A stretch of 59,764 bases of DNA, taken from Solirubrobacteraceae bacterium. GTDB taxonomy: Bacteria; Actinomycetota; Thermoleophilia; Solirubrobacterales; Solirubrobacteraceae. Of this stretch, positions 1-16,632 are shown piece by piece. Location: NCBI GenBank assembly GCA_036520135.1, contig DATDKF010000003.1, positions 1-59,764 on the forward strand. The letters are read 5' to 3'. Made by a program: the position numbers and the translations under genes. Numbering within the stretch: position 1 is the first letter of the stretch; each line of letters begins with the position of its first letter. Under the pieces are notes generated by a model, which saw nothing but the letters and a program-made list of their open reading frames with translations, did no database searches and was not told where the DNA came from.

Positions 1-753
1 CCGCCGCGCCGGCGGCTCCGAGCCCGCGGTCAGCGCCTGCAGCCGCGAGGAGACGAGCGTGATTCCGGGCAGCGGGCGCGCCCGCGTGACCGCGTCGGCG
101 AACGCCTCGCGGTTGCCGCGCAGCGCCTGGAAGCTGAGCGCAGCCACGCCGAGCCCGGCCTCGAGCAGGTCCCACATGTCGGCCAGGACCAGGGCGGCGG
201 TGGCGAACGTCGCGGCGTTGGAGCTCATCAGCGGCAGCGCGTCGCCCGGGCCGATCGCCAGCCGCGCCGGCGCGCGGTCCTCGCCCTCGCCGGCGAGTGC
301 AAGGCCGAGCTGGGCGAGCACGGTGAGGTCGCCGGTGCCCAGGCCGCCGAGGTCGCGCACGGTCGGGACGCGGTGCTCGGCCAGGATGTCGGCGAGCGCC
401 AGCGCCACCTCCGGCCGGCTGCCGCCGCCCGCGGCCATCTGCGCGAGCCGCACGAGTACCGTCGCGCGCACCACGTCCTCGGGGAGCGGCTCCCCGACGC
501 CGCCGGCATGGCTGCGCAGCAGCCGCAGCGCGTGCTCGCCGAGGTCGCCGAGCACGTCGACATGGCGATTGGCGCCGACGCCGGTCGTACGGCCGTAGAC
601 GCCGCGGTCGGCCGCGACGGCCTCGGCCGCCGCGTGCCCGGCGGCCATCCGCTCGCGGGCCGCCGCGGTCAGCTCGACCGCGATCGGGCCGCCGCGCGCC
701 GCCGCCGCGACCGCGGCGGGCGTGAGCGGCTCGTCGCCGATGCGCAGCGTCAC
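1..753 (-). CDS. HAL/PAL-family (aromatic amino acid lyase fold) protein, N-terminal 251 codons only; 3' end lies beyond the window start
   Basis: Absent from the ORF track because it runs off the edge. My translation from GTG 753..751 reads VTLRIGDEPLTPAAVAAAARGG...GVYGRTTGVGANR...VPTVRDLGGLGTGDLTVLAQLGLALAGEGE...LMSSNAATFATAAL with no stop down to base 1. It resembles the HAL N-terminal half (YG.TTGFG, G.SGDLAPL, NG). The start overlaps the DUF1638 stop as GTGA. Confidence 0.6.
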   Translation of the reverse strand, partial: MTLRIGDEPLTPAAVAAAARGGPIAVELTAAARERMAAGHAAAEAVAADRGVYGRTTGVGANRHVDVLGDLGEHALRLLRSHAGGVGEPLPEDVVRATVLVRLAQMAAGGGSRPEVALALADILAEHRVPTVRDLGGLGTGDLTVLAQLGLALAGEGEDRAPARLAIGPGDALPLMSSNAATFATAALVLADMWDLLEAGLGVAALSFQALRGNREAFADAVTRARPLPGITLVSSRLQALTAGSEPPARR

Positions 754-1394
754 GCCGCCAGCAACGCCATGAGCTGTCGTTCCAGTGCCTCCTCTCCGAC
801 CTCGCGGACCTCCAGCGGCAGGCCGAGCGCGGCCGCCGCCCGCTCGGCCGCCGCGCGCGTGGCGGCGGTCGGGTGCTGGGCGAGCCAGAGCACGCGCGTG
901 TAATGACCGAAGTACGCGTCGCGCAGCTCGGGGTGGCGATCCAGCCCCAGCTCGCGCAGCACCGCGTGCTCGAACGTGCGGGCGAGGAAGTCGGTCAGCA
1001 GGTACGTGCCGGGCTCCTCCGCGAGCGCGGCCTGGGCGTCCGGGCCGGCGATCACGTCGTAGCAGTGCGCGCCCGCGAGCCGCGGCACGTCGCCGAGCAC
1101 GTCGTCGAGCGCTCCGTAGGTGCCGCAGTCGGCGTAGGCGACCGCCACGACGTCGTACGCGTCGAGCACCTCCTTGACCGCGGGCGCGATCAGCTCGGGA
1201 CGGTTGTGCAGCAACGCCGGCAGCGGATGGACCTGGACGTCGAGCCCGCGCCGCCGGGCGACGGCCTTGACGTGCACGGCGAGCGCGCCGCAGGCGACGA
1301 CGGTACGAGTGCTCCGCGGGACGTCCGGCCCCGCGTCCCGATCATGGCGGACGGCATCCGGCCGTCCGTAACCGGTCGGCTTCGCCTCCCTCAC
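750..1394 (-). CDS. DUF1638 domain protein (family regularly linked to corrinoid methyltransferase loci)
   Basis: Only the C-terminal 214 aa of track ORF 750..1922 look real (VVACGALAVHVKAVARRRGLDVQVHPLPALLHNRPELI...CGTYGALDDVL...LTDFLARTFEH). The internal GTG at 1394 forms a GTGA overlap with the stop of the upstream activator gene. The upstream part of the ORF is R/A/G-rich junk. Confidence 0.75.
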   Translation of the reverse strand: MREAKPTGYGRPDAVRHDRDAGPDVPRSTRTVVACGALAVHVKAVARRRGLDVQVHPLPALLHNRPELIAPAVKEVLDAYDVVAVAYADCGTYGALDDVLGDVPRLAGAHCYDVIAGPDAQAALAEEPGTYLLTDFLARTFEHAVLRELGLDRHPELRDAYFGHYTRVLWLAQHPTAATRAAAERAAAALGLPLEVREVGEEALERQLMALLAA

Positions 1395-3274
1395 GGGAAC
1401 GCCAGCTGGTCGACGAACATGTCGTTGAAGTCTGCGCGGCCGGACAGCTCGACGTACTCGACCTCGTGGACGATCGAGCGCGCCTCGGCCCGCTCGCGCA
1501 CGCTGAGCGCGGCCATCTTCGCGCCCTCGCTGGCCACGTTTCCGGCCGAGACGATCCGGGGAAGCGCCATCCGCGGCACGAGGCCGATCTTGACGGCGCT
1601 GGCCGGCGAAAGATAGGCCCCGAAGCTGCCGGCCAGCAGCACCTGCGAGATGTCCTCGACTGTGACGCCGAGCTCGGCCAGCAGGATCTGCCAGCCGGTG
1701 GCGATCGACGCCTTGGCGAACTGCAGCTCGCGGACGTCGCGCTGCGAGAGATAGACGCCGCTCGCGAGCATGAACACGCGCTCCTCGCCGATCTTCGTCA
1801 GCCGCGCGGCGAGCGCGGGCGCGATCTCCGCCGCGGTCTCGTCGGGCACATAGCGGCCCGAGTGGTCGAGCAGCCCCGCGCCGACCAGCTCGGCGACGCA
1901 GTCGACCAGCCCCGACCCGCACAGCCCGACCGGCTCCACGTCGCCGATCACCTGCAGCTCGAGCTCGTCGCCGGCGACCCGCACGCCCTCGATCGCACCC
2001 TCGGCGGCGCGCATCCCGCAGCGGATCTGCGCGGCCTCGAACGCCGGGCCGGCGGGCGCCGCGGTGGCGAGCACGCGGTCGTGGCTGCCGAGCGCGATCT
2101 CGCTGTTAGTCCCGACGTCGATGAACAGGCGCAGGCGCGTGTCGCGCGTGAGGCCGGTGGCGAGCATGCCGGCGACGATGTCGGCGCCCACGTAGGCGCC
2201 CAGCGACGGGAACACGACGGCGGGCGCGCGCGGGTGGATGGCGACGCCGAAGTCGGCCGCCGTCGCGGCCGGGAGCTCGTGCGCGGCGACGATGAACGGG
2301 GCCATCGACAGCGGCTCGGGGTCGATGCCGAGCGCGAGCTGGGTCATCGTCACGTTGCCGACGACGACGATCTCGTAGACCTCGGCGGGGTCGACGCCGG
2401 CCTCCTCGCAGACCTCGGCGGTCAGCTCGGCGAGCGTCTCGTGCGCGCGCGTCTCGAGCGCGCCGAGCGCCTCGTCGTCGAGCATCGTCGCCGAGACACG
2501 CGAGATCACGTCGGCGCCGTACGGCTGCTGGCGGTTGAGCATCGAGCGCACGGCGGCCGGCTGGCCGGTCTCGAGGTCGAGCAGCGCGGCGACCACCGTC
2601 GTCGTGCCGAGGTCGAACGCGATCGCGAACCGGCGCGTGGTCGTGTCACCGGGCTCGACCGCGATCAGCAGGTCGTCGCACACGACCGCAGTCACGTCGA
2701 ACATCGCGGCGCGCAGCGTCTTGCCGAGCGTGCGGACGACGCTCAGCTCCACGCGCGGCTCGAGGTCCTCGAGCGCGTCGAGCACCCGCTGCACGTCCGA
2801 GCGCTGGTCCTCGAGCGACGGCTCGTCGAGCACGAGGTGGCGCTTCTGCACCGCCGGGCGCAGGATCACGTGGCGGCCGACGCCCACGAGCGCCGCCTTC
2901 GGGCGCGTCTGCAGCGGCGGCACGTGGACCACCAGGTCACCGCGCGCTTCCGCGCGGCAGGCGAGCCGCCAGCCGTCGCGCAGCTCGTCGGGGCTGAACG
3001 CGCGCGGGTCGACCGAGCTCACCGGCACGTCGCCGTCCTCGATCCGCACCTTGCACTTCTTGCACGTGCCGTGGCCTCCGCACGTGGAGTCGATCGCCAC
3101 GCCGTTCCAGCTCGCGGCGTCGAAGATCGGCGTCCCGCTCGGGACGCGCACGTCCGTGCCGTCGGGTTGGAAGTGCAGGCGGACGCGCTGGGGCCCCGGC
3201 GGAGGGGTCAGACCCCTCCCTTCATCCGGCGGGTCGAACGCCGCGGTCAAGGGGTCAGACCCCTGGGCAGTCAC
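1391..3274 (-). CDS. Corrinoid reductive activation protein (N-terminal 2Fe-2S ferredoxin + ASKHA ATPase domain; RamA/RACo-like)
   Basis: Carries a CGGHGTCKKCKV cluster motif, ASKHA phosphate motifs AFDLGTTTVV and FIDVGTNSEI, and is 627 aa. The first ~30 codons are low complexity and carry palindromic repeats. There is no alternative canonical start nearer the ferredoxin domain. Confidence 0.9.
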   Translation of the reverse strand: MTAQGSDPLTAAFDPPDEGRGLTPPPGPQRVRLHFQPDGTDVRVPSGTPIFDAASWNGVAIDSTCGGHGTCKKCKVRIEDGDVPVSSVDPRAFSPDELRDGWRLACRAEARGDLVVHVPPLQTRPKAALVGVGRHVILRPAVQKRHLVLDEPSLEDQRSDVQRVLDALEDLEPRVELSVVRTLGKTLRAAMFDVTAVVCDDLLIAVEPGDTTTRRFAIAFDLGTTTVVAALLDLETGQPAAVRSMLNRQQPYGADVISRVSATMLDDEALGALETRAHETLAELTAEVCEEAGVDPAEVYEIVVVGNVTMTQLALGIDPEPLSMAPFIVAAHELPAATAADFGVAIHPRAPAVVFPSLGAYVGADIVAGMLATGLTRDTRLRLFIDVGTNSEIALGSHDRVLATAAPAGPAFEAAQIRCGMRAAEGAIEGVRVAGDELELQVIGDVEPVGLCGSGLVDCVAELVGAGLLDHSGRYVPDETAAEIAPALAARLTKIGEERVFMLASGVYLSQRDVRELQFAKASIATGWQILLAELGVTVEDISQVLLAGSFGAYLSPASAVKIGLVPRMALPRIVSAGNVASEGAKMAALSVRERAEARSIVHEVEYVELSGRADFNDMFVDQLAFP

Positions 3275-3296: not shown

Positions 3297-4157
3297 TCAC
3301 GAGGCCGCGGCCGCCGCCTGGCGCGCGCGGTGGGCGGCGATCCAGCTCGCGCCCCAGGGGTCATGGCCCAGCAGCAGGTCCGCGGCGCGCACGCTCTGCA
3401 CGCAGACCTCGGCGGTGCTCATGATCGCGCTGGTCAGCCCCGCGGCCATCGCCATCGGCAGGAACGCCGCATTGAGGACGAACCGCTCGGGCAGGCCGAA
3501 CGAGACGTTCGACGCGCCGAGGCACATGTTCACGCCGAGCTCGTCGCGGATTAGCGAGATCGTCGTGAGCGTCGTCGTCACCGCTTCGGTGTCGGCCCCG
3601 ACGGTCATCGCGAGCGGGTCGATCACCACGTCCTCGGGCGGGATCCCGTGGTCGCCCGCCGCCGAAACGATCTTGGTCGCGATCTCGAGCCGCTGCTGTG
3701 GCGTCTCGGGGATGCCGGTCTCGTCGTTGGCCAGGCCGATCACCGCCGCGCCGTGGCGCGCGACCAATGGCAGGATCTCCTCCAGCCGCTCGTCCTCACC
3801 GGTCACCGAGTTCACGAGCGCCTTGCCCTCGTAGACGGCGAGGCCGGCCTCGAGCGCCTCGATCACCGACGAGTCGATGCACAGCGGGATGTCGGCCTCG
3901 GCCTGGATCACGGTGAGCATCTTCTGCAGCAGCTCGGCCTCGTCGACCAGCGGGATGCCGGCGTTGACGTCGAGCATGTCGGCGCCCGCGTCGACCTGCG
4001 CGTGGGTGTCGACCGCCACCGTCGCGAGATCGCCGGCCCGCAAGTCCTCGGCCAGCTTCTTGCGCCCGGTCGGATTGATGCGCTCGCCGATGATGCAGAA
4101 CGGCTGCCCGGCGCCGATCGTGACGGTCTTGGACCGGGATCGCAGGACGGTGTCCAT
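3297..4157 (-). CDS. Methylcorrinoid:tetrahydrofolate methyltransferase (pterin-binding, MtgA/MeTr-like)
   Basis: 286 aa with GERINPTGRKKL, MLDVNAG, NSVTGE and ASNVSFGLPER motifs typical of pterin-binding methyltransferases. The start shares 1 nt with the corrinoid protein stop (TGATG). Confidence 0.9.
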   Translation of the reverse strand: MDTVLRSRSKTVTIGAGQPFCIIGERINPTGRKKLAEDLRAGDLATVAVDTHAQVDAGADMLDVNAGIPLVDEAELLQKMLTVIQAEADIPLCIDSSVIEALEAGLAVYEGKALVNSVTGEDERLEEILPLVARHGAAVIGLANDETGIPETPQQRLEIATKIVSAAGDHGIPPEDVVIDPLAMTVGADTEAVTTTLTTISLIRDELGVNMCLGASNVSFGLPERFVLNAAFLPMAMAAGLTSAIMSTAEVCVQSVRAADLLLGHDPWGASWIAAHRARQAAAAAS

Positions 4158-4822
4158 CAGGCCGGCACCATCTCGCGCCGCTTCTCGATTAGCTCCTTGG
4201 CCTTCTTGACCGCCGACGACGCGTCGGCCGAGTAGCCGTCGGCGCCGACCGCGTCGGCGTACTCCTGCGTCACCGGCGCGCCGCCGACCATCACGATCAC
4301 CTTGTCGCGGATGCCGGCCTTCTGCAGCGCGTTGATGTTGGCCTTGAACATCGGCATCGTCGTGGTCAGGAACGCCGAGAAGCCGACGACGTCGGGCGCG
4401 TGCTCGTTGACCTGCTCGACGAACTTCTCGGGCGGCACGTTGACGCCGAGGTCGATCACCTCGAAGCCCGCGCCCTCGAGCATGATGTTGCAGAGGTTCT
4501 TGCCGATGTCGTGCACGTCGCCCTTGACGGTGCCCATGAGGAACGTGCCGACCGGCTTGCTCCCGGTCTCCGCGAGCAGCGGCCGCAGGATGTCGAGCGC
4601 GCCCTGCATCGCGCGCGCGGCGATCAGCATCTCCGGCACGAAGTAGTCACCGCGCTCGAAGCGCGCGCCGACCTCCTCGAGCGACGGGATGAGCGCGTCG
4701 TAGAGCATCCGCTCGGGCTCGAGGTCGCTCTCGAGGCCGGTCTCGACGCCCTCTTTGACGGCCGGGGCGTTGCCGACCAGGGTCTCCTCGTAGAGCAGCT
4801 GCAGGATCTCGTCGTGCGTCAT
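4157..4822 (-). CDS. Corrinoid (B12-binding) protein of a methyltransferase system (MtgC/MttC-like)
   Basis: 221 aa with an N-terminal helical cap and a Rossmann B12 domain carrying GDVHDIGKN (DxHxxG) and MVGGAPV. It has an ATGA overlap with the IclR stop. Confidence 0.93.
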   Translation of the reverse strand: MTHDEILQLLYEETLVGNAPAVKEGVETGLESDLEPERMLYDALIPSLEEVGARFERGDYFVPEMLIAARAMQGALDILRPLLAETGSKPVGTFLMGTVKGDVHDIGKNLCNIMLEGAGFEVIDLGVNVPPEKFVEQVNEHAPDVVGFSAFLTTTMPMFKANINALQKAGIRDKVIVMVGGAPVTQEYADAVGADGYSADASSAVKKAKELIEKRREMVPA

Positions 4823-5592
4823 GCGGCATGCACCCCCATGTCGTGGTCAAGCGCCTGGGCCTCGTGGATCAGCGTCGGGTACAGGTCGGCGATCCGCTGC
4901 GCGTCCAGCCGCAGCGTCGGGCCGGAGATCGACAGCGCGGCCATCCCGTCGACGACCGGAGCGGCGAGCGACGACAGCCCGGTCTCGAGCTCGTCTACGG
5001 CAGTGGCGTAGCCGCTGCGTCGCACGCGGGCGATCTCGGTCTCCAGCCGGTCGGGGTCGGCGATCGTCGCCGGCGTGAGCGGGTCGAGCGGGGTGGGTGG
5101 GATGGGCAAGCCGCCGAACGCGATCAGGACCTTGCCGACCGCCGTGCAGTGGTACGGGACGCGCCGCCCCACCCACTGGCCGGTTCCCAGGAAGTGCCGG
5201 CTCTCGACCTGCGCCAGGTGCTCGACGCCGAGCGGACCCGGGACCGCGAGGTTGATCGTCTCCCCGCTCGCCTCCGACAGCGCCTCCAGGCGCGGTTGCG
5301 CGAGCTCGACGAGCTGCCCGCGGTGGACGAAGCGCCGCAGCACGGGCCCGGGCTCGAAGCGTCCGCGCCGGCCGCGCTGCTGGATCAGCCCCTCGCGCTC
5401 GAGCGCGCCGAGGAGCCGGGAGGCCGTGCTCTTGGGCAGCGACGCGTCGTCGGCGAGTTCGGTCAGGCCGCGCGGGTGTTCGGACTCGAGCACGAGCGTG
5501 AGGAGCTGCGCCGCCCGGTTGATGGTCTGAGTTCCTTGGAACTCTTGTTCCACGGCGAATATATTAGGGTCGCGCTCATGTTCGTCAACCAC
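4819..5592 (-). CDS. IclR-family transcriptional regulator
   Basis: Contains the HTH LTELADDASLPKSTASRLLGALEREGLI plus an IclR effector domain. The start is uncertain. The first start (5592) would overlap the divergent mttB-like start, and the internal GTG at 5553 (VEQEFQGTQTINRAAQLL) is equally plausible. Confidence 0.85.
   Translation of the reverse strand: MVDEHERDPNIFAVEQEFQGTQTINRAAQLLTLVLESEHPRGLTELADDASLPKSTASRLLGALEREGLIQQRGRRGRFEPGPVLRRFVHRGQLVELAQPRLEALSEASGETINLAVPGPLGVEHLAQVESRHFLGTGQWVGRRVPYHCTAVGKVLIAFGGLPIPPTPLDPLTPATIADPDRLETEIARVRRSGYATAVDELETGLSSLAAPVVDGMAALSISGPTLRLDAQRIADLYPTLIHEAQALDHDMGVHAA
5554..5577. promoter_or_regulatory. Probable divergent promoter/operator core with AT-rich palindrome AATATATT (5558-5565)
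   Basis: This is the only AT-rich stretch between the IclR-led operon and the mttB-like gene. TATATT reads as a -10-like hexamer on both strands. Confidence 0.3.
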
Positions 5593-7020
5593 ATGCCGCG
5601 CTACGAGATTCTCAGCGACGAGGCGATGGACGTCCTCGACCGTGGCTGGCGGCGCATCGTGTCAGAGCTCGGCGTGGAGTTCATGCTCCCCGAGGCGGTC
5701 GAGCTGTTCCGCAAGGCCGGCCAGACCGTCGAGGGCGACGCGCTCGTCAAGCTCGACCCGGACTTCGTCCTCGAGCAGGTCGCCAAGGCCCCGCGCCAGT
5801 TCGACCTGCAGGCGCGCAACCCGGAGCGCAGCGCGCACATCGGCGGCGACCACATGGTCTTCTCCGCCGTCTACGGGCCGCCTTTCGTGCGCGATGGCGC
5901 CGAGCGGCGCGACGCGACGATGGCCGACTTCGAGAACTTCGTGAAGCTCTCGCAGGCGTTCCCGGAGCTCGACTCGCCGGGCGGCACGATCGTCGAGCCC
6001 AACGACCGGCCGCTCGACTCGCGGCACCTCGACATGGTCTTCGCGCTGCAGACGCTGTCCGACAAGCCGTACATGGGCTCGGTGATCTCCGGGCCGAACG
6101 CGCTCGACACGATCGCGATGGGCGAGATCCTCTTTGGCGGGCCCGATGCGCTGCAGCGCGCTCCGGTCTCGATCTCGCTGATCAACTGCAACTCGCCGCT
6201 GCGCTGGGACGACCGGATGCTCAGCGCGATGGTCGAGTACAACCGCGCCAACCAGGCCGTCGTGATGACGCCGTTCCTGCTGATGGGCGCGATGTCGCCG
6301 GTCTCCATCCCCGCCACGCTCGCCCAGCAGATGGCCGAGGCGCTGTCGGGCATCGCGCTCTGCCAGCTCGTGCAACCCGGCTGTCCGGTCGTCTTCGGCT
6401 CGTTCCTGTCCAACACCGACATGCAGTCCGGCTCGCCGAGCTTCGGCACGCCCGAGTCCGCGATCGGGCTGCTCTGCACTGGGCAGATCGCGCGCCGCTT
6501 CGGGCTGCCGTTCCGCAGCGGCGGCGGTCTGACGGCGAGCCAGACGGCCGACGCCCAGGCCGCCTACGAGGCGCTGATGACGCTGCTGCCGACGTTCCTG
6601 GCCGGCACCAACTTCGTCATGCACTCGGCCGGCTGGCTCGAGGGCGGCCTGGTGTCCTGCTACGAGAAGTTCATCGTCGACATCGAGCTGCTGCGGATGC
6701 TGCGGCACGAGTTCACGCCGCTGGAGATCGACGAGGCGAGCCTGGCCTTCGACGCCCACCAGGAGGTCGGCCAGGGCGGCCACTTCCTCGGCGCCGCGCA
6801 CACGCTCGAGCGCTTCCGCGAGTGCTTCTACCGGCCGCTGCTCTCCTCGACCGAGAACTTCGACCGCTGGACGCGCAACGGCGGCCAGGACGCCGCGGAG
6901 CGCGCCGCGAAGATCTGGCGCGCGACGCTGGAGGCCTACGAGCCGCCGGCGCTCGACGACGGCGTGCGCGCGCAACTCGAGGAGTTCGTGCGCCGCCGCC
7001 GGGAGGAGCTGGGCGACTGA
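5578..7020 (+). CDS. MttB-superfamily (trimethylamine methyltransferase family) protein, non-pyrrolysine type; predicted quaternary amine:corrinoid methyltransferase
   Basis: This is the real part of track ORF 4828..7020: MFVNHMPRYEILSDEAMDVLDRGWRRIVSELGVEF...SISLINCNSPLRWDDRML...GGLTASQTADAQAAYE...FDRWTRNGGQDAAERA. The frame is uninterrupted with no internal TAG. The start is ATG 5578 or ATG 5593. Confidence 0.92.
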   Translation: MFVNHMPRYEILSDEAMDVLDRGWRRIVSELGVEFMLPEAVELFRKAGQTVEGDALVKLDPDFVLEQVAKAPRQFDLQARNPERSAHIGGDHMVFSAVYGPPFVRDGAERRDATMADFENFVKLSQAFPELDSPGGTIVEPNDRPLDSRHLDMVFALQTLSDKPYMGSVISGPNALDTIAMGEILFGGPDALQRAPVSISLINCNSPLRWDDRMLSAMVEYNRANQAVVMTPFLLMGAMSPVSIPATLAQQMAEALSGIALCQLVQPGCPVVFGSFLSNTDMQSGSPSFGTPESAIGLLCTGQIARRFGLPFRSGGGLTASQTADAQAAYEALMTLLPTFLAGTNFVMHSAGWLEGGLVSCYEKFIVDIELLRMLRHEFTPLEIDEASLAFDAHQEVGQGGHFLGAAHTLERFRECFYRPLLSSTENFDRWTRNGGQDAAERAAKIWRATLEAYEPPALDDGVRAQLEEFVRRRREELGD

Positions 7021-7658
7021 GCGCCGACGGGCTGATCGCCGAGCGCGCCTACGCGGCCCTGCGCGACCGCATCGTCACGCTGAGGCTCCCGCCCGGCACG
7101 GCGCTGCGCGAGGACAAGCTGATGCGCGACCTCGGCATCGGCCGCACCCCGCTGCGCGAGGCGGTCAAGCGGCTCGCGCTCGAGGACCTGGTGGAGGTGC
7201 TGCCGCGCAGCGGCACCTACGTGACGAGCATCGACGCCGCCGACATCGTCCACATCTCCGAGGTCCGCGCCGAGCTGGAGGCGCAGGCCGCCGAGCTGGC
7301 CGCCCGCCGGCTCGACGACCCGATGCGCGAGCGCTTCAGCGCGCTCCTGGCCGACATCGGCGAGCGGCGGACCGGCCCCGACGCGCTGATGCGTCTCGAC
7401 GAGTCGATCCACCGGCTGGTCTGGGAGGCGGCCCGCAACCCGTACCTGACCGCCACGCTGGAGCGCTACTTCGCCCTGTCGCTGCGCGTCTGGTACGTCG
7501 TGCTCGACCGCGTTCCGGGCCTCGGCCCCGCGGTGCTCGACCACGCTCGCCTCGTCGAGGCGATCCTACGCGGAGACGCCGCCACGGCCCGCGAGCTGAT
7601 GCGCGACCACGTGGTCGAGTTCGAGCGCGAGATCGCGGCCGCGTTCAACGGCGACTAG
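7017..7658 (+). CDS. GntR/FadR-family transcriptional regulator
   Basis: Contains the [28 protein letters not shown] plus an FCD-like C-terminal domain. No ATG/GTG/TTG lies between the mttB stop and the HTH. The best candidate start is CTG 7017, which forms a CTGA overlap with the mttB stop. The track start at 6822 would overlap mttB by about 200 nt. Confidence 0.8.
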   Translation: MSADGLIAERAYAALRDRIVTLRLPPGTALREDKLMRDLGIGRTPLREAVKRLALEDLVEVLPRSGTYVTSIDAADIVHISEVRAELEAQAAELAARRLDDPMRERFSALLADIGERRTGPDALMRLDESIHRLVWEAARNPYLTATLERYFALSLRVWYVVLDRVPGLGPAVLDHARLVEAILRGDAATARELMRDHVVEFEREIAAAFNGD

Positions 7659-7700
7659 CCGGCGCCGCCAACGAACTTCGGCTGGGTAAGGAGGCTGGGG

Positions 7701-7781
7701 GATCGGCCGGGTCGGCGGTCCATGGCGAGTTGACCTTCGTATGGCAGGCAAACTCGCCAGAGGCCGACCGACGCGGCCGAT
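7701..7781. terminator. Compound hairpin between convergent genes (possible bidirectional terminator or structured RNA)
   Basis: The inner stem is a perfect 9 bp (TGGCGAGTT 7723-7731 with AACTCGCCA 7751-7759). The outer stem pairs about 13 of 14 positions (7702-7715 with 7768-7781). There is no U-tract. Confidence 0.35.
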
Positions 7782-7824
7782 GCCCTCATTCCCCTACCCA
7801 GCCGCAGTTGACGTTCGCCACGCG

Positions 7825-8678
<854 letters not shown>

Positions 8679-8682
<4 letters not shown>

Positions 8683-9476
8683 GACGCGACCGCGTACCGC
8701 TCGATCGCTTCCCGTCGCCATCGCTCGGTGCGCTCGAGCTCGTTGAACGTGAAGACGTGCAGCCCCGCGATGTTCGCGGCCGGGTCCTTCCACAGCGGCT
8801 CGAGCCGGCGCATCAGCGGCTCGGGGCTGAACGTCCGCGTGACCAGGCGCTTGAGCCACGCCCGGTGCGCGCGCAGGAATCGCGCCGACTCGCCGAGGCC
8901 GATCTTCATCGACACCCGCAGGAGCTTCGAGTTGTCGATGATCCCCGGCACGCCGATCCAGATCGGCAGCGTCGTGCCGCGCTCGCGGACCGCGCCCACC
9001 CACCACGCGATCGTCTCCGGGTCGAAGCAGATCTGGCTGACGATGTAGCTCGCCATCGGCGCCTTCTCGAACATCGCCGAGATCGTCGTCTCGTCGTCGA
9101 TGAAGTGGTGGCTCTCCGGGTAGCCGGTGATGCCGAGCTCGCTGAGGTGGCGCCCGCGCAGCGCCCGCAGCAGCGACGCCGCGTCCTCGAACTGGCCGGC
9201 CTCGACGGCGTCGCCGGCCGGGACGAATGCCTCGTGCACGCCCGCCGCCTCGAGTCGCGCGACGATCTCGTCCAGGTGGGCCGGGTCGCGGACCAGCCGC
9301 GCCGACAGGTGCGGCACGACCTGGTAGCCCTCGCCGGCCAGGCGCTCGGTGACCGAGAGTGTGGCCTCGAGGCCGCGCGAGGGCGACGCGGTCACCGTCA
9401 CCTTCACCTCGCGCGGCACGTGCGCGAGGACCTGGTCCTCGATGCCGTCGATCGGGATGACCTCGTAGCGGATCAC
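8679..9476 (-). CDS. metF: Methylenetetrahydrofolate reductase (MetF/MTHFR family)
   Basis: This is the C-terminal 265 aa of track ORF 8679..10778, with [25 protein letters not shown] and GLHVFTFN motifs. GTG 9476 forms a GTGA overlap with the GMC oxidoreductase stop. Confidence 0.85.
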
Positions 9477-11095
9477 GCCGCCGGGCGCTCCAGCTTGTAG
9501 AAGCCCGCGGTGGAGGGCGGCAGCGGCGTGTCGCCGCGGATCAGGTCGGCGGCCTTCTCGGCGACCATCATCGTCGGCGCGTAGATGTTCGCGTTGGTGA
9601 CGAACGGGAACACCGACGCGTCCACCACGCGCAGGCCGTCGACGCCGCGCAAGCGCATCGTCGCCGGGTCGACGACGGTGCCCATCGCGCACGTGCACGA
9701 GGGGTGCAGCGCGGTCTCGGCGTCGCGCCGCACCCACTCGAGGATCTGCTCGTCGCTGTCCACCTGCGGGCCGGGCGACAGCTCGCCGCCGTCGAGCTCG
9801 GCGAACGCCGGCTGGGCGAGGATGTCGCGCGCGCAGCGGATCGCCTCGACCCACTCGCGCCGGTCGTTCGGTGTCGACAGGTAGTTGAAGCGCAGCGCCG
9901 GGTGGCGGCGCGGATCGGTCGAGGTGATCTTCACCGAGCCGCGGACGTCGGCGTACATCGGGCCGACGTGGAACTGGTAGCCGTGCTCGGCGCCGGGCTT
10001 GCTGCCGTCGTAGCGCACGGCGAGCGGCAGGAAGTGGAACATCAGGTTCGGGTAGGCGACCTTGTCGTTGGAGCGCACGAAGCCGCCCGCCTCGAAGTGG
10101 TTGGTCGCGCCCGGCCCGCGGCGCGCGAACAGCCACCGCGCGCCGACCATCGGCCGGTTGCGCCACTTCAGCGCGGGCTGCGCCGACACCGGCTGCATGC
10201 ACGCGTGCTGGACGTAGACCTCGAGGTGGTCCTGCAGGTTCTCGCCGACGTCCGGCAGGTCGGCGACGGCCTTCACGCCGAGCGCGGACAGCTCGCGCGC
10301 GTTGCCGACGCCGGACAGCTGCAGCAGCTGCGGCGAGTTGATCGCCCCGCCGCAGAGGATGATCTCGTTCCCGCGCGCCACGCCGTCGCCCACCCGCACG
10401 CCGACCGCGCGGCTGCCCTCGAACACGATCTTCGAGACGAGGCGGCGGGTGACGACGCTGAGGTTGGGGCGGCGCCGCACCGGGTGCAGGTACGCGCGCG
10501 CCGCGCTCCAGCGGCGCCCGCGCTTGATGTTGCGGTCGAACGGCGCGAAGCCCTCCTGCTTGTAGCCGTTGACGTCGGTCGTGAGCGGGTGGCCGGCCTG
10601 CTGCACCGCCGCGAACAGCGCGTCGAATAGCGGGCCGCGCGCAGGGCCGCGCTCCAGCCACAGCGGCCCGTCGCCGCCGCGCCACTCGTCGGCGCCCGCC
10701 CTGCAGGTCTCCATCCGCTTGAAGTACGGCAGGCAATGCGCGTAGTCCCACGCCTCCAGCCCGGGCACGCGCGCCCACTTCTCGAAGTCCATCGGGTTGC
10801 CGCGCTGGAAGATCATCCCGTTGATCGAGCTCGAGCCGCCGAGCACCTTGCCGCGCGCGTGGTAGATCCGCCGCCCGCCCATCTGCGGCTCCGGCTCGGA
10901 CTCGTACTTCCAGTCGTAGAAGCGGCTGCCGATCGGGAACGGCAGCGCCGCCGGCATGTGGATGAAGACGTCCCCGATCCAGTCCGTCCGCCCCGCCTCG
11001 AGCACGAGCACCTGCGTCGACGGGTCCTCGCTGAGCCGGTTCGCCAGCACGCAGCCGGCCGAGCCGCCGCCGACGATCACGTAGTCGTAGATCAC
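9473..11095 (-). CDS. GMC-family FAD oxidoreductase, choline dehydrogenase (BetA)-like
   Basis: 540 aa with N-terminal [20 protein letters not shown] and GMC signature regions. The GTG start forms a GTGA overlap with the GntR stop. Confidence 0.9.
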
Positions 11096-11748
11096 AACAC
11101 GCCCCGGATCTCGCTCTCGAACGTCGCCACGTGCTCGGCGGCGATCGCCCGCGCGCCGTCGGCGTCGCCGGCGCGGATCGCGTGCAGCAGCTCGCTGTGC
11201 TCGTGCACGCGCTCGAACAGGTGCGGTAGGCGGCCGAGCACGAGGTACCAGATCCGCAGCGACAGGTTGAGGTAGTGCTCGAGCGTGTTGCGTAGGTACG
11301 GGTTGGCCGCGCAGCGGTAGACGAAGCGGTGGATGCGGGCGTCGAGCCCCATCAGCGCGTCGGCGTCGCTCCGCGGCTGCTCGATCTCGGCCACCAGCGC
11401 GTCGAGCTCCTCGCGCTGCGCCGCCGTCAGCCGCTGCGCCGCGCGGTAGGCCGCGTGGCCCTCGAGCTGCACCCGCACGTCGGAGATGTGCGCGAGGTCG
11501 GTGATGTTGATCTCGGTGACGAACGTGCCGCGCCGCGGGTAGACGGCGACGAGGTTCTCGAGCGCGAGGCGCTTGATCGCCTCGCGCAGGGGCGTCCGCC
11601 CGAGCCCGAGCTCGCGCCCCAGCGACTCCTCGTTGATCGGCGCGCCCGGGGGGATCGTCAGCGTGACGATCTGGTCCCGCAGCTCCACGTAGGCGCGGTC
11701 GGCGAGCAGCTCGCCCGCTCCCGACCGCGCCCCGGTGGCAGCGCTCAC
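11092..11748 (-). CDS. GntR/FadR-family transcriptional regulator (paralog of 7017..7658)
   Basis: Contains [25 protein letters not shown]. It is clearly collinear with and similar to the other GntR by eye. The start is the internal GTG 11748, 2 nt after the permease stop. Confidence 0.85.
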
Positions 11749-11750
11749 CG

Positions 11751-13370
11751 CTACTCCGCGGGAATCTCCCCGTAGGACATCGACAGATCCATCCCCTGCC
11801 GACGCCGGTACAGCCTCGAGCTCACGAAGATCGCGAGCGCGAGCGCGTATAGGGCGCCCATGAAGATCAGCGAGCCGCCGTCGTTGATCCCGTAGATGTC
11901 GTCTTGGAGCCACTTGAAGAGGCAGAACACCAGGAACACGATGAACAGGCTCGCCGCGAAGGTGATGAGCGGGATGCCGGCCACCCTGTACTTGGCGATC
12001 GGCGATGCGTTGTAGATCTCAGGCTTGCGCCAGGGCAAGATCGCGGCCGCGACCGTCGACCCCAGGAACGTGACTGCGATGACGAGCGTCGCATCGAGAG
12101 TGTACGTCTGGAAGTCGGTGCTGTAGGCGTACAACGCGGCGATCCCGAGCGACGGCACGAGCATGAGCAGCAGCGCCACGTACGGCACGCCGTTGCGGTT
12201 GACCTTCGCGACGCCCTCGGGCAGGACGCGGTCGAACGCGGCGGCGAAGACCACGCGCGTCGAGGACAGGAACACGGTTCCGACCCAGCCGAAGAACCAC
12301 AGCGAGAGCACGGCGACGAGCAGGAACTGCAGCACCGGACTGCCGAAAAACGACGCGGCCAGCAGGCCTGGGTACGGCCAGACGCCGGTCGGGATCGTGC
12401 CCGCCCAGAACGCGTTGTTGGCGGCGTTGTAGAAATCCCAGCCGAACGTCTTCGAGAAGAGCAGGAACAGCACGACCGCAGCGATCGACGTCGCGAGCAG
12501 CGCGCCGAACATGGCCCGGATGTTCTGACGGAAGTCGGACGCCCCGCGGACCTCGCCGTAGAGCGTCGCGCCCCAGTTCGACCACAGGTTGAAGAACGCC
12601 ATCATCGGGACCAGCAGGAACGTCGCGCCGACCGCGAACCCGCTCACATCGGCCGGCGAGAAGTCCTTCAGACCGGCGTCCAGGGTCGCCTGATAGGCGT
12701 TGTCGACCCCGTAGAGGTCCTTCGACTGCTCGTTGAAGTTCGAGATGAAGCTCGTCTTGGAGTTGACGAGCAGCAGCACGATCATCACGGCCAAGCCGAT
12801 GAGGCCGCCGTAGAAGCAGACCTTCTGGATCTTCGAGTACGTGCGCATCCCCAGGGCGATGAAGCCCGACGCGAGGAGCGCGGTTATCACCGACGAGACG
12901 AAGATGCCGTCGTTACCGCTCCAGAACGTCACCGCGCTGTCCCAGCCGATGATCGCGCACAGCGGCCCGAGCACCTCGACGTTGAGGATGTTGGCGTAGA
13001 TCGGGACCCAAAGCCAGAGGATGAACCACCAGCCTGTCACGGCCAGCACGAAGCCGATGCCGCCGCCGAGCACGCGGCTGGTCCAGACGTAGTCTCCGCC
13101 CGCGCGCGGCATGGCGGCGATCAGGGACGCGTAGGTGATGGCCTGCACGACCAGATAGAGACCCGCGAGCAGCACCGCGAACAGCAGGCTGCCGTCCGGG
13201 ATAAACGGGGCGTAGCCGAAGATGTACAGCCCGAGCGTCACCAGGTTGATCGAGAACGCGGCGTAGATGAACGCGTCGCGCGTCGACCACCCGCGGACGA
13301 GGCCAGTCGCCTTGCGTACGAAGACGGTGCGTTCGGCCGCGTCTCCCGCACCTGTTGAAACTGTTGCCAT
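11751..13370 (-). CDS. APC-superfamily amino acid/organocation permease
   Basis: 539 aa with more than 12 hydrophobic segments and an APC-like pattern (PRAGGDYVW). A GAGGAGG Shine-Dalgarno sequence lies 7 nt upstream of the ATG. Confidence 0.9.
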
Positions 13371-13412
13371 GTTCTGACTCCTCCTCGTGGCTCCGGTCCG
13401 CCCGCGGCCTTC

Positions 13413-14357
13413 CTAGCCGCTGGTCAGCACGAAGTTCTTCACCTTCTTCTTCTTGGCGTCGAGATCGATCACGACGCCGAGCAGCTGGCCCTGCTCGTAG
13501 GAGCTGCCGGGGTTGATGCACAGCGTGCGGCCGAGCCGATGCGTGCCGCGCGCCTCGTGGATGTGCCCATGCAGCGCGAGCGCGGGCTGGTGGCGCTCGA
13601 TCGCCTCACGCACCGCCGTCGAGCCGACCGGCACGGTCGCGCGGCCCGCGTCCTTGAGGCTCATGTCTGCGGTCAGCTGTGGAGCGTCGTCAAGGCCGGT
13701 GTTGTGGGGCGGGCAGTGCAGGCTGAAGATCGTGCATTCGGGCTCGACCGTGACGTCGGCCAGCATCCGCTCGATGCGCTCGAGCAGCACGTCCTCGTCC
13801 TCCTCGCGGTAGGTGTCCCACGGCGTGCGGTTGGCCCATCCGCTGGACGCCATCTGGAAGTCGCCGAGGTCGACAACGCGGCCCTCCCCCAGCTCCACCG
13901 TCTTCGCGTCGGCGACCACCGCGTCGACCTCGAGCTGGTCGTCGTTGCCCGGGCATACGAAGACGCGGATGCCGGTTCCGGCGAGCCGCTCGTCCGCCAT
14001 TGCCATCCAGCGCTCGACCGTGGCGAGCATGTGCTCCTCGAACAGCGCGTGCCAGCGGGGCTCGTCCGCCGAGAGCTCGCGAAGCTCGTCCTGCGTGGTC
14101 CGGAACGGGTAGTAGCCGCGGCGCTGGACCGCCGCCTCGAACTGGGCGAGCTCGTCCTCGCCGTTCAGCGTCTCGCGGTTCTCGAGGAGCGTGGCGTGCC
14201 AGTGGCCGCCGCCGTCGTCGATGATCGGGATCAGCGCCTTGCCGGTCATGTCGCCGCCGAGCACCACGACGTCGGCCTTGTAGTGGGCTCCGCTGTTGAG
14301 GAACTTCTTCCAGCACACTTCAGAGCCGTGGATATCCGTCGCGAAGAACATCCGCAT
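13413..14357 (-). CDS. Metallophosphoesterase (calcineurin-like) family protein
   Basis: This is the real 314 aa of track ORF 13413..14651, with DIHG, GGDMTG, GNDD, LHCPPH and HGHIHE metal-ligand motifs. The ATG at 14357 lies 4 nt after the upstream stop. Confidence 0.85.
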   Translation of the reverse strand: MRMFFATDIHGSEVCWKKFLNSGAHYKADVVVLGGDMTGKALIPIIDDGGGHWHATLLENRETLNGEDELAQFEAAVQRRGYYPFRTTQDELRELSADEPRWHALFEEHMLATVERWMAMADERLAGTGIRVFVCPGNDDQLEVDAVVADAKTVELGEGRVVDLGDFQMASSGWANRTPWDTYREEDEDVLLERIERMLADVTVEPECTIFSLHCPPHNTGLDDAPQLTADMSLKDAGRATVPVGSTAVREAIERHQPALALHGHIHEARGTHRLGRTLCINPGSSYEQGQLLGVVIDLDAKKKKVKNFVLTSG

Positions 14358-14361
14358 CCGA

Positions 14362-15108
14362 CTACTCCACCTCCTCCGGCAGCTCGTACCAGCGCTTCTT
14401 GTCCCCGACCTTCGCCCGCCGCCGCCAGCCGCGGCTCTTGGGCTCGTCCTCGATCCGCCGCAGGAGCTCGTCGAAGCGCGCCTCGATGCGCTCGCGGTCG
14501 CCGACGGGGAGGTCGTAGTCGCCGACATGGCCGCGGCAGCGCTCGAGATTCGCGGTGATCGTGCGCCACAGCCCCCAGTCGTCGGCGCACAGCGCGGCGA
14601 TCTGCGCGCCGTTGACGGCGCCGTTGTCGTGGTCCGCGATCGGATGCCCATGGAACAGCAGCACCGTGTCGCGGATGTCCTTCTCGTTGACCTCGATGAT
14701 CTGGAGCTTGGTGAGCATCAGCTCCGCCAGTGGCACCGTCTGGGTCTCGACCTCCAGCCGCTTGCCGAGCGGGATCTCGTGGCACATCCGGAACGCGTCG
14801 ATGAAGAGGTCGACCTGGCGGCCGTTGGCCTCGTCGTAGTAGAGCCCTCGCTCACGGGCGTGCATGGCGTTGAAGGCGACGTGCGGCTCGTATCCGGCGT
14901 TGCGCAGCAGCTTGTCGGCCGCTCCGCCGCCCTTCTTCGTCACGGCGAAGTCGATGTCCTTGTACTCGCGCGTGAGCGCGGCCGGCACGTCGGTCGCCTT
15001 CAGCCGCACCGCCACCCCGCCCAACAGCCGCAGCGGCACCCCCTCCTGCTCGGCGATCCCGAGCAGGCGCTCGCCCTCGGAGACGATGTCCTCGAGGATG
15101 TCGCTCAT
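14362..15108 (-). CDS. Hypothetical protein with nucleotidyltransferase-fold-like N-terminus
   Basis: 248 aa. LRLLGGVAVRL...YKDIDFAV resembles the G[GS]...D.D minimal NTase signature. It has a helical C-terminal half and a basic tail. The function is not assignable. Confidence 0.7.
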   Translation of the reverse strand: MSDILEDIVSEGERLLGIAEQEGVPLRLLGGVAVRLKATDVPAALTREYKDIDFAVTKKGGGAADKLLRNAGYEPHVAFNAMHARERGLYYDEANGRQVDLFIDAFRMCHEIPLGKRLEVETQTVPLAELMLTKLQIIEVNEKDIRDTVLLFHGHPIADHDNGAVNGAQIAALCADDWGLWRTITANLERCRGHVGDYDLPVGDRERIEARFDELLRRIEDEPKSRGWRRRAKVGDKKRWYELPEEVE

Positions 15109-15189
15109 TGGCTACCGACCCTTGGATGCAACTGGAATTCGACTTATATATCGTCGGTTCCCGAACGGCAAGCCGAGAGAGAGGGCTCG
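15109..15189. promoter_or_regulatory. Divergent intergenic region with AT-rich island TTATATAT (15144-15151)
   Basis: This is the only AT-rich patch between the divergent NTase-like and ALDH genes. The purine-rich stretch AGAGAGAGGG precedes the ALDH ATG. Confidence 0.3.
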
Positions 15190-16632
15190 ATGACGCTCAC
15201 CCGCATGTTCGTCGGCGGCGACTGGCGCGCGGCGCTGGACGGAGCGGAGGACCGCGCGTCCAGCCCGGCGACGGGCGAGGACCTCGGCGCCGTCGCCAAG
15301 GGCGACCGCGAGGACGCGCGGCAGGCGATCGCGGCCGCCGCCAAGGCGTTCCCCGGCTGGGCGGCGGAGACCGCGTTCGCGCGCGCTGCGGCGCTGCACC
15401 GCGTGGCCGACGCGTGCGCGCGCCGGCGTGACGAGCTGGCCCGCGCGTGCACGCTCGACCAGGGAAAGCCGCTCCACTCCGAGTCGTACGACGAGGTCGA
15501 CGAGCTGATCGCCATGTGGCGCGCGGCGGCCGAGGACGGCATCCGGCTCGAGGGCTCGATCCCCAACAGCTCGACGCCGGGGGCGCGCGTGCTGCTGATG
15601 CGGCGCCCGCTCGGCGCGGTCGCGGTCGTGACGCCGTGGAACTGGCCGTACACGATGCCGGCCGAGATCGTCGCCCCGGCGCTCGCCACCGGCAACACCG
15701 TCGTGTGGACGCCGGCGCCGAGCACGGCGGTCTGCTCCGGGCTGTTGACGGAGTGCGTGGCGGACGCCGACCTCCCCCCGGGCGTGTTCAACTTCGTGCT
15801 CGGTCCGGGCCCGGTGGTCGGCGACGAGCTGGTGGCGAACCCGGGGACGGCGGCGGTCGGCTTCATCGGCTCCACCGCGACCGGCCGGCGGATCGCCGAG
15901 CGCGCGGCCGGCAAGACGCTGCTGCTGGAGATGGGCGGCAACGGACCGCTGGTGGTGCTGGACGGCGCCGACGTCGACGCGGCCGCCGCGGCGGCCATCA
16001 GCGCGTGCTTCCTTTGCGCCGGCCAGAGCTGCACGGCGGGCGAGCGGCTACTCGTGCACGAGCGCGTCCGCGACGAGTTCGTCGAGCGCCTGGCCGGCAA
16101 GGTCGCCGACGAGGTGCGGCTCGGCGACCCGTTCGCGGCCGAGACGACGATGGGCCCGCTCAACAACGAGCCGGTGGCGGCGAAGATGGACGCGCACGTC
16201 GAGGACGCGGTCGAGCGCGGCGCGACCGTGGTGGCGGGCGGCGCCCGCGACGGCGGCTTCCCGACGCCGCTCTACTGGCAGGCGACGATTCTCGACGGCG
16301 TGAGCCCCGACGCCGAGGCCGCGCGCGAAGAGACGTTCGGCCCGATCGCCCCGATCGTGCCCGTCGGCTCGCTCGAGCGGGCGATCGAGCTCACCAACGC
16401 CTCACCGTACGGGCTGCTGGCGGCGATCTTCACCGGCGACGTGATGGACGGCCTGCGGTTCGCGGACCAGGTCCACACCGGCCTCGTGAACATCAACGAG
16501 ACCACGAACTACTGGGAGAACCACCTGCCGTTCGGCGGCCGCGCGGGCACCGCCAGCGGTACCGGCCGCGTCGGCGGCCGGCACGCGCTGGAGCGCCTGA
16601 CGGAGCTTCAGACGATCGTCATCGGCGCCTAG
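15190..16632 (+). CDS. Aldehyde dehydrogenase family protein (betaine-aldehyde dehydrogenase is a plausible role from context)
   Basis: This is the real 480 aa of track ORF 14296..16632, with the catalytic Glu region LLEMGGNGP and the Cys region FLCAGQSCTAGER. Confidence 0.92.
   Translation: MTLTRMFVGGDWRAALDGAEDRASSPATGEDLGAVAKGDREDARQAIAAAAKAFPGWAAETAFARAAALHRVADACARRRDELARACTLDQGKPLHSESYDEVDELIAMWRAAAEDGIRLEGSIPNSSTPGARVLLMRRPLGAVAVVTPWNWPYTMPAEIVAPALATGNTVVWTPAPSTAVCSGLLTECVADADLPPGVFNFVLGPGPVVGDELVANPGTAAVGFIGSTATGRRIAERAAGKTLLLEMGGNGPLVVLDGADVDAAAAAAISACFLCAGQSCTAGERLLVHERVRDEFVERLAGKVADEVRLGDPFAAETTMGPLNNEPVAAKMDAHVEDAVERGATVVAGGARDGGFPTPLYWQATILDGVSPDAEAAREETFGPIAPIVPVGSLERAIELTNASPYGLLAAIFTGDVMDGLRFADQVHTGLVNINETTNYWENHLPFGGRAGTASGTGRVGGRHALERLTELQTIVIGA

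Follow-up and report, generated by a model that had tools for sequence, protein, structure and literature searches.

Lyases of the histidine ammonia-lyase (HAL) superfamily that lack the 4-methylideneimidazole-5-one (MIO) cofactor and release trimethylamine have become known through work of 2019-2026, and those that have been characterised require a trimethylammonium substrate. They include the ergothionase of Treponema denticola (PDB 6s7j), whose product thiourocanate passes to thiourocanate hydratase, and the histidine betaine trimethylammonia-lyase (HBTL) of Shewanella woodyi, Swoo_3913, which makes urocanate and trimethylamine from hercynine (bioRxiv 10.1101/2025.08.13.670108). Here we describe a gene at the left end of a 59,764-nt stretch of DNA (59.8 kb, 73% G+C) from a Solirubrobacteraceae bacterium, contig DATDKF010000003.1, the whole of which is called the window. 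The gene is the last in a six-gene corrinoid operon and probably encodes a cytoplasmic, MIO-independent hercynine (histidine betaine) trimethylammonia-lyase that would form trans-urocanate and trimethylamine. Both this kind of enzyme and the predicted reaction are already known: the initial annotation had spoken of a betaine-lyase pathway not seen described, and the 2025 report on HBTL removes that claim for the lyase reaction.

The window lyase and its relatives, hereafter the family, share with ergothionase the absence of MIO, the same deletion at the MIO site (G-E-G-D in ergothionase, G-T-G-D in the family), Ser at the position of HAL Asn195, a G-V-G-x-N-[KR] motif and the equivalents of the HAL Tyr, His, Glu, Gln, Arg and Asn residues. 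The two agree, against HAL, in the deletion, in having S-x-N-A where HAL has N-G-T and in having G-V-G-x-N-[RK] where it has G-F-G, so the analogy with ergothionase drawn by the initial annotation is a valid one. Ergothionase differs in its thiolate-binding Lys384, where the family has Tyr, and in feeding thiourocanate hydratase, whereas the family occurs with HutU. The likeness to HBTL lies in the PF00221 domain, the missing triad, the catalytic Tyr, the His/Glu and Gln/Arg/Asn ligands and the lack of the ergothionase Lys, and was drawn from the residues described for HBTL. The family differs from HBTL in having no leader, Tyr at the Lys position, an invariant G-T-G-D, catabolic neighbours and aerobic actinobacterial hosts; HBTL is paired with a urocanate reductase for anaerobic respiration, and no flavocytochrome neighbour matched the gene panel in 83 lyase loci, although no search aimed at one was made. 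HutH (Pseudomonas putida structures 1b8f and 1gkm; L003 8258-9733, loci being labelled L001 and so on) resembles the family in fold, best sequence scores, substrate-binding residues and, as predicted for the family, a urocanate product. The family has no triad, Ser for Asn195, mostly Phe for Tyr280 and about 20-30 fewer residues than HutH; L003 also encodes a true HutH, and L033 a HAL-like lyase that bears the triad.

Two further systems bear on the locus. One is the oxidative degradation of ergothioneine, of which dioxygenase homologues and a partner gene flank the lyase or share its operon in 11 loci, the left flank of the window being read by proxy. The other is the aerobic glycine betaine system MtgBCD/RamA/DUF1638/MetF2 (PMC12478193; MtgB structure PMC13080624). 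All of its modules are present in the window operon and the adjoining island, namely an MtgB-like MttB, a corrinoid protein, a pterin-binding methyltransferase, RACo/RamA, DUF1638, a methylenetetrahydrofolate reductase (MTHFR) paralogue and PurU. The window operon differs in belonging to the Actinomycetota, in being headed by an IclR gene and in ending with a lyase that has no known role in glycine betaine metabolism.

The lyase gene and its active site

The features of the lyase gene in the window are these:

1-753, reverse strand: 5' part of the MIO-less PF00221 lyase gene, 251 codons, about 53% of the gene, which continues past the left window end
750-753, reverse strand: GTGA start/stop overlap of the DUF1638 and lyase genes; the same 4-nt overlap is found in L006 and in the gene call of L085
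565-600, reverse strand: residues 52-63, VYGRTTGVGANR; Tyr53 is the equivalent of the catalytic base Tyr53 of HAL
499-522, reverse strand: residues 78-85, LLRSHAGG; His82 is the equivalent of the imidazole-binding His83 of HAL
310-348, reverse strand: equivalent of the MIO-forming loop, residues 136-148, GGLGTGDLTVLAQ; G139-T140-G141 (331-339) stands for G-A-S-G
208-231, reverse strand: residues 175-182, LMSSNAAT; Ser177 stands for HAL Asn195, as in ergothionase (VSCNAQ)

The frame (753..1, reverse strand) has the G+C pattern of a genuine high-GC gene (0.84, 0.57 and 0.96 at the three codon positions), and its 251-residue product matches the PF00221 (Lyase_aromatic) profile with E = 2e-47 over profile positions 1-255 of 466 (162.4 bits; cut-off 27.3), which bears out the histidine/phenylalanine ammonia-lyase fold first assigned to it. 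The GTG start (753-751) lies over the TGA stop of DUF1638 (752-750) in the junction GCGGCGTGACGCTG / GCGGCGTGACG, as had been noticed at the outset. An independent gene call on near-identical soil-metagenome contigs of the Joint Genome Institute (JGI; L085) starts the lyase at the same overlap, and homologues have N-termini (MRLRIGDEPL..., VKLQIGDEAL...) that coincide with it. Upstream of the GTG no stop interrupts the frame for at least 50 codons (window 754-903, reverse strand), where it runs over the DUF1638 gene, and the start assignment rests on homology and gene calling. The overlap suggests that the lyase is likely to be translationally coupled to DUF1638. Full-length relatives have about 473-490 residues, so that, as first stated, only the N-terminal half lies in the window; the L006 protein (473 residues) is 81.5% identical to the window fragment. 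Exact matching of the corrinoid protein led to 16 contigs; the four examined, about 100% identical, were all 7.1 kb or shorter and ended at or before the lyase start. In L084-L087 (JGI 3300086366, 3300060731, 3300078481 and 3300078424) the window proteins from the GMC oxidoreductase to DUF1638 are matched at 98-100% identity, and thus the window organism or a very close relative recurs in several public soil metagenomes.

Against solved HALs the HMMER alignment pairs 'GGLG-TGDLTVLAQ' with GSVGASGDLAPLAH, and a MAFFT alignment with 77 genomic homologues agrees. The initial annotation had read Gly-Thr-Gly in place of Ala-Ser-Gly from an alignment made by eye. The triad is indeed missing, with no ASG, TSG, SSG or CSG at the MIO position in either formal alignment, but the change is not a three-for-three exchange: one residue (HAL Ala142) is deleted and Ser143 is replaced by Thr, the first Gly of GTG being the Gly that precedes the triad in HAL. 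With the ergothionase of T. denticola (SSIGEGDITTLSH) the HMMER alignment is free of gaps over this loop. Judged from its sequence, the lyase would be unable to build the MIO cofactor, for which members of the superfamily use an Ala/Thr/Ser/Cys-Ser-Gly triad. Elsewhere in the active site, His82 stands in the Ser-His arrangement typical for histidine-type substrates, and the G-V-G-x-N-R motif resembles GVGWNK of ergothionase, unlike GFGLLA of HAL.

These features belong to a large family. Among 5.8 billion proteins searched, 146 relatives of the window lyase came up, most of them with G[LI]GTGD, which likewise stands in most of a set of 120 database homologues, and a scan of species-representative genomes with the family's 'SSNA' motif gave at least 596 confirmed stretches. 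The best 80 of these all come from Actinomycetota or unclassified metagenome-assembled genomes, and the closest among the matches listed are such genomes from Solirubrobacteraceae and Thermoleophilaceae. We counted residues in 77 family proteins extracted from actinobacterial genomes (44-81% identical to the window protein). All 77 lack the Ala142 equivalent and have Thr at the Ser143 position, followed by Gly in 74 and Ala in three; this invariance of G-T-[GA]-D means that the change is a trait of the family, not chance or sequencing error. The equivalents of Gln277, Arg283, Asn313, Phe329 and Glu414 are likewise present in every protein, those of Tyr53 and His83 in 76 each (the remaining row has a gap), Ser at the Asn195 position in all, and Phe for Tyr280 in 66. 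At the position of the thiolate-binding Lys of ergothionase (Td_ETL Lys384) all 77 have Tyr, in a stretch of the alignment that is of low confidence, and the surrounding segment SSG(L/V)MI(A/L)EY holds neither Lys nor Arg. The active-site segments do not differ between lyases that have MttB, a dioxygenase operon or hut genes around them.

Source annotations met for the family read 'histidine ammonia-lyase' or 'aromatic amino acid lyase'. The family is not HutH, since the scores of its full-length members with the NCBIfam HutH models (TIGR01225 / NF006871) are 230-245 bits, where the cut-offs are 524-539. In a crude neighbour-joining tree it is monophyletic and sister to two other MIO-less sequences, ergothionase included, and its identity to ergothionase is 24-29%. 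The lyase aligns from HAL residue 1, with no leader extension.

The question whether such a protein could still act on histidine arises because all HAL substrate-binding residues are kept, because the lyase occupies the hutH position beside hutU in L002, and because overall similarity is greater to HAL (153 and 125 bits) than to ergothionase (90 bits). An ethylidene-imidazolone cofactor might be formed from Gly-Thr-Gly, or no cofactor might be needed; alternatively the family could consist of catalytically dead paralogues. We consider these proposals highly improbable. In L003 and L033 the same cluster encodes a HAL-like lyase with an intact triad (that of L003 scores 623-635 bits with HutH models), the deletion together with Asn195->Ser removes the geometry that supports MIO, as it does in ergothionase, and the strict conservation of active-site residues speaks against a dead paralogue. 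To our knowledge every characterised MIO enzyme has Ser at the middle position of the triad, and the S143T variant of HAL is reported to be inactive.

Neighbourhoods of the lyase family

We labelled 83 lyase loci with a panel of reference proteins. Eleven of the 83, from at least six taxa, have a gene of the cysteine-dioxygenase type with its strictly paired partner no farther than 10 kb from the lyase; OpuAC-type ATP-binding cassette (ABC) transporters are near it in 15, urocanase in 12, and MttB in five, all of them in the Solirubrobacteraceae clade of the window. In L004, L053 and L072 partner gene, dioxygenase and lyase form a same-strand operon with overlaps or gaps of no more than 23 nt, and no demethylase gene was found in these operons. 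An IclR regulator adjoins the lyase in several unrelated taxa. Many loci in Lentzea and Amycolatopsis have only a transporter of the MFS type or an RpiR regulator beside the lyase, or no informative neighbour at all. The MFS neighbours were considered as ProP-type betaine transporters and dropped, their nearest NCBIfam match being the aromatic acid:H+ symporter family.

The dioxygenases are homologous to PDB entries 8qfl-8qfr, released in 2023-24 and entitled 'Ergothioneine dioxygenase from Thermocatellispora tengchongensis'; their identity was set through these titles, the source names of the homologues being only generic. The L002 dioxygenase matches by sequence with 182 bits, and a relative 90% identical to the island dioxygenase has 41-44% identity by structure alignment. 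A preprint (bioRxiv 10.64898/2026.05.19.726356) mentions ergothioneine dioxygenase and that its product is desulfinated, the sulfinate formed by the enzyme being one that loses sulfur. The partner protein has about 300 residues (302 in L002), always accompanies the dioxygenase homologue and often overlaps it by 4 nt. Its gene lies at the following places:

L002, 17344-18252, reverse strand: partner gene
L006, 15326-16225, reverse strand: partner gene
L053, 8448-9347, forward strand: partner gene
L072, 8461-9429, forward strand: partner gene

In a 2024 study a dioxygenase and a metal-dependent desulfinase reportedly convert ergothioneine to trimethylhistidine and SO2, and the oxidative pathway is said to end at hercynine. 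With such a desulfinase as the precedent, the partner protein is a candidate ergothioneine sulfinate desulfinase.

The urocanase that adjoins the lyase in L002, the only adjacent one scored against both kinds of model, gives 913 bits with the HutU model (cut-off 375) and passes neither of the two models for thiourocanate hydratase. As a true HutU, it leads us to expect urocanate, not thiourocanate, as the product of the lyase. L033 holds two sets of genes side by side. The first has the G-T-G-D lyase, a urocanase and the dioxygenase pair. The second has another PF00221 lyase (12267-13913, reverse strand; 548 residues) with G-QGD at the MIO site, Gln for HAL His83 and Arg at the ergothionase-Lys position, beside genes at 15275-17005 and 16996-18072 that encode a thiourocanate-hydratase-like protein (794 bits, below the cut-off of 930) and a thiohydantoin desulfurase (449 bits, cut-off 440). 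The second lyase may be an actinobacterial variant of ergothionase, and the presence of both sets shows that the G-T-G-D and ergothionase-like types are not redundant.

These loci bear directly on the proposal that the family itself eliminates trimethylamine from ergothioneine to give thiourocanate. It shares the MIO-site deletion, Asn195->Ser and the G-V-G-x-N-[RK] motif with the T. denticola enzyme and stands next to it in the tree, and ergothioneine-related neighbours are common. However, loss of the Lys abolishes ergothionase activity and the family has Tyr in its place; the hydratase beside the lyase in L002 is HutU; L033 provides a separate ergothionase-like lyase, with Arg, next to the thiourocanate-hydratase-like and thiohydantoin desulfurase genes; and identity to ergothionase is low. 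An ergothionase function is accordingly most improbable in our estimation.

Other genes were met beside the lyase. In L028 (Sciscionella) the G-T-G-D lyase is directly followed by a HAL paralogue of 512 residues (11379-12917, forward strand) that has lost three residues at the MIO site ('GSVG---YLGP'), is apparently triad-less and keeps Asn195 and Tyr280. A PF02574 homocysteine S-methyltransferase-like gene, BHMT/MtgE-like but below all NCBIfam cut-offs, follows the lyase-adjacent IclR gene in L003 (12054-13088) and L007 (12346-13371) and the thiohydantoin desulfurase gene in L033 (18177-19211). S-methylation of ergothioneine by its product is one idea. We dropped the argument that two unrelated demethylases beside the lyase imply demethylation of hercynine, given the MtgE/BHMT-like character of this gene and its place in L033.

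A probable glycine betaine operon with a variable 3' end

The lyase is the last gene of an operon in the order IclR, corrinoid protein, pterin methyltransferase, RACo, DUF1638 and lyase, in which four of the five junctions are overlaps of 1-4 nt. The remaining genes of the window that we describe are:

750-1394, reverse strand: DUF1638 gene, 214 amino acids, start overlapping the RACo stop
1391-3274, reverse strand: RACo/RamA-type corrinoid reductive activase with 2Fe-2S and ASKHA domains
3297-4157, reverse strand: pterin-binding methyl-corrinoid:tetrahydrofolate methyltransferase, MtgA/MtgD-like (NF005719 320 bits, cut-off 259)
4157-4822, reverse strand: corrinoid (B12-binding) protein, MtgC-like; best match the glycine betaine-specific MtgC model, below cut-off
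4819-5592, reverse strand: IclR-family regulator, first gene of the operon
5578-7020, forward strand: divergent MtgB-like methyltransferase of the MttB superfamily, with no in-frame stop (no pyrrolysine)
7122-7658, forward strand: GntR
7825-8721, reverse strand: PurU
8679-9476, reverse strand: MTHFR-like
9473-11095, reverse strand: GMC oxidoreductase
11092-11748, reverse strand: GntR
11751-13370, reverse strand: amino-acid permease
15190-16632, forward strand: aldehyde dehydrogenase
39542-41572, forward strand: PafBC-like regulator, 676 amino acids, two WYL and two WCX domains
42042-44234, reverse strand: GAF-GGDEF-HD-GYP signalling protein, 730 amino acids

The genes from 7122 to 16632 form the context of a betaine and one-carbon (C1) island. 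The last two features look ordinary and without relation to the lyase; genes of ordinary character make up the rest of the window (MMPL, WYL/WCX regulator, GAF-GGDEF-HD, LuxR, MFS), and no hut gene was found anywhere in the 59.8 kb. DUF1638 proteins are predicted to aid the reductive recharging of the corrinoid (PMC12478193).

The window MttB is 42% identical to MtgB of Desulfitobacterium hafniense, whose glycine betaine ligands are Y97, R312, H348 and F356 (PMC13080624); the first three have equivalents in the window protein and F356 does not. Around residues 343-353 (window 6630-6660) it reads HSAGWLEGGLVS, against HTAGILQYFMAM in D. hafniense MtgB. The pi-cation Phe356 aligns with Gly ('AGWLEGGLVS'), as in PDB 4yyc, and a Trp stands four residues earlier, also as in 4yyc. 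The aerobic MtgB-like clade may build its quaternary-amine cage differently. Gene context supports glycine betaine as the most likely methyl donor.

Orthologous operons point the same way. The left flank of the lyase, which lies beyond the window, was read by proxy in L005, L006, L008 and L009, whose lyases are 73-81% identical to that of the window; these loci, together with the fragmented L001, have the same arrangement as the window. To the left of the lyase they have a convergent OpuAC ABC transporter, the dioxygenase and the partner gene (in fragments in L009). Thus the neighbourhood, as far as L005, L006 and L008 represent it, is not the ordinary hutUHI operon that the initial annotation had named as the alternative. 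Further genes of L005, beyond this ergothioneine module, encode a LacI-like protein, HSP20, BCCT and a DAO-FAO_M-GCV_T protein. The DUF1638 protein led to sibling contigs whose operon is orthologous but has no lyase; in identity to the window their MttB reaches 89-90%, the corrinoid protein 93-95%, RACo 85-87%, DUF1638 79-86% and IclR 63-81%. In L088 (10564-12306) and L090 (10573-13080) the gene that comes after DUF1638, with a 4-nt overlap at its stop, is of the DAO-FAO_M-GCV_T, dimethylglycine dehydrogenase-like type and precedes electron transfer flavoprotein (ETF) genes, and in L089 (10578-11057) the operon ends at DUF1638, with HSP20 and BCCT next. The dimethylglycine dehydrogenase-like and ETF genes make it most likely that the corrinoid operon serves the demethylation of glycine betaine and varies at its 3' end, where the ergothioneine/hercynine module appears to have lodged in the clade of the window. 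The lyase gene would have become translationally coupled to DUF1638 in that clade, and its co-transcription with the corrinoid operon is likely.

The initial annotation had gone further and proposed a combined betaine-lyase and corrinoid-demethylase pathway. In one version of it MttB would demethylate hercynine to N,N-dimethylhistidine and the lyase would eliminate dimethylamine; in another, methyl groups would be harvested from hercynine by the corrinoid system in parallel with the lyase. The six genes are tightly coupled and the GTGA overlap is kept in the clade; the IclR regulator that adjoins the lyase in unrelated taxa also heads the window operon; and MttB paralogues are known to take diverse quaternary amines, while the betaine pocket of the window MttB, lacking the Phe356 equivalent, differs from that of D. 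hafniense MtgB. Nevertheless, the siblings L088 and L090 have, in place of the lyase, dimethylglycine dehydrogenase-like and ETF genes as in the classical glycine betaine route, Y97, R312 and H348 are conserved, and the BCCT, GMC oxidoreductase, aldehyde dehydrogenase, MTHFR and PurU genes of the island fit the catabolism of choline and glycine betaine. The MttB-lyase link is confined to one clade of a family present in at least 596 genome stretches (83 loci labelled), whose active-site segments do not change with context and whose dioxygenase operons do without a demethylase, and a dimethylamino substrate would lack the trimethylammonium group that characterised MIO-less lyases need. The combined pathway is hardly likely in the light of these findings and is not supported by the comparison.

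The attachment of the lyase looks like a local feature of gene order that brings two betaine-catabolic modules under common expression with no shared pathway. A substrate common to the MttB system and the lyase has little probability. We give a similarly small chance to the coupling being functional, with MttB taking a methyl group from hercynine or another histidine betaine and the G-T-G-D lyase using the demethylated product or acting alongside; were it true, aerobic soil Actinomycetota would have a corrinoid-dependent way to harvest C1 units from hercynine that derives from ergothioneine. In a less far-reaching form of the idea the invariant Thr140 would mark a third, mechanistically distinct type of MIO-less lyase, one whose substrate is not plain hercynine. 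The literature searched held no mention of hercynine together with MttB, and the variable 3' end cautions against reading the corrinoid link as a new combined pathway.

A predicted route from ergothioneine to urocanate

Bertsova et al. reasoned that an enzyme with the imidazole and carboxylate ligands but with neither the triad nor the thiolate-binding Lys should act on hercynine, and then proved this for Swoo_3913 (bioRxiv 10.1101/2025.08.13.670108). The window family fits the same residue logic, which leads to the hercynine reading, and its context adds both a source of hercynine and a sink for urocanate; the gene context is the basis on which elimination of trimethylamine from N-alpha-trimethylated histidine is predicted. 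In the proposed reaction Tyr53 would abstract the beta-proton, His82 and the Glu414 equivalent would bind the imidazole, the carboxylate would be bound by the equivalents of Gln, Arg and Asn, and the quaternary ammonium would depart unaided; trimethylammonium would be a self-sufficient leaving group, so that the MIO electrophile would not be needed. Neighbourhoods suggest a pathway in which a betaine-type ABC transporter would import ergothioneine or hercynine, the ergothioneine dioxygenase homologue would form the sulfinate, the paired partner protein would remove SO2 to leave hercynine, the lyase would split hercynine into urocanate and trimethylamine, and urocanate would enter the Hut pathway. 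The N-methylated substrate foreseen by the initial annotation is thus upheld in the form of hercynine, which is likely, but not in that of a partly demethylated product, as the active-site segments are the same in the MttB and dioxygenase contexts.

Several observations weigh against this assignment. About 40 of the 83 loci, 21 of them in Lentzea, have no informative neighbour; only half of the gene lies within the window, and its left flank is known through relatives. HBTL, likened to the family by described residues, is a periplasmic, Mg2+-dependent enzyme with a leader and has Asn at the ergothionase-Lys position. The partner protein had no significant match in Pfam, NCBIfam or PDB sequences. 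The substrate-binding protein of the ABC transporter scores slightly better with ProX (125 bits) than with the ergothioneine-binding EgtUC (101 bits), and the idea of a specific ergothioneine binder was dropped for that reason. No gene for the consumption of trimethylamine was seen near the lyase, and the literature searched held no assay of any member of the lyase clade. The strictly conserved Thr140 has no assigned role. Structure was tried as a means of discrimination and proved uninformative, the AlphaFold model of a full-length relative fitting HAL and ergothionase equally (template modelling scores of 0.84-0.87 to both, with 0.85-0.87 to HAL).

Some of these points could equally be taken to favour a different histidine betaine or N-methylated histidine, such as N-pi-methyl histidine betaine, an ovothiol-type compound, or ergothioneine sulfinate or sulfonate. 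Shewanella SO_3299, predicted to act on hercynine, proved to need an extra N-pi-methyl group, neither Thr140, invariant as it is, nor the Tyr that stands for the ergothionase Lys has an explanation, and the many Lentzea and Amycolatopsis loci with only MFS or RpiR genes, or with no informative neighbour, leave room for another substrate. Against this, both HAL ligands of the imidazole nitrogens (the His83 and Glu414 equivalents) are conserved, the recurrent neighbour is a true HutU, pointing to unmodified urocanate, and the dioxygenase and partner pair is said to end at hercynine, for which support in the literature is partial. We see a small but appreciable chance of such a substrate, and consider hercynine the probable one.

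What is new here is a large clade of actinobacterial lyases in which G-T-G-D is invariant and that is not described in the literature searched, in which no actinobacterial hercynine lyase was found either; the probable step that follows the ergothioneine dioxygenase/desulfinase pair, although the 2024 paper on the dioxygenase may already note the lyase as a neighbour; and the joining of the lyase gene to a glycine betaine operon in one clade. If the function is borne out, many annotations would be corrected in a family of at least 596 stretches, and a sequence rule would be at hand: G-T-G-D and S-S-N-A, together with the absence of Lys from the ergothionase position. The family would moreover release trimethylamine in soils, and it would link the oxidative breakdown of ergothioneine, by way of hercynine, to central metabolism through urocanate.

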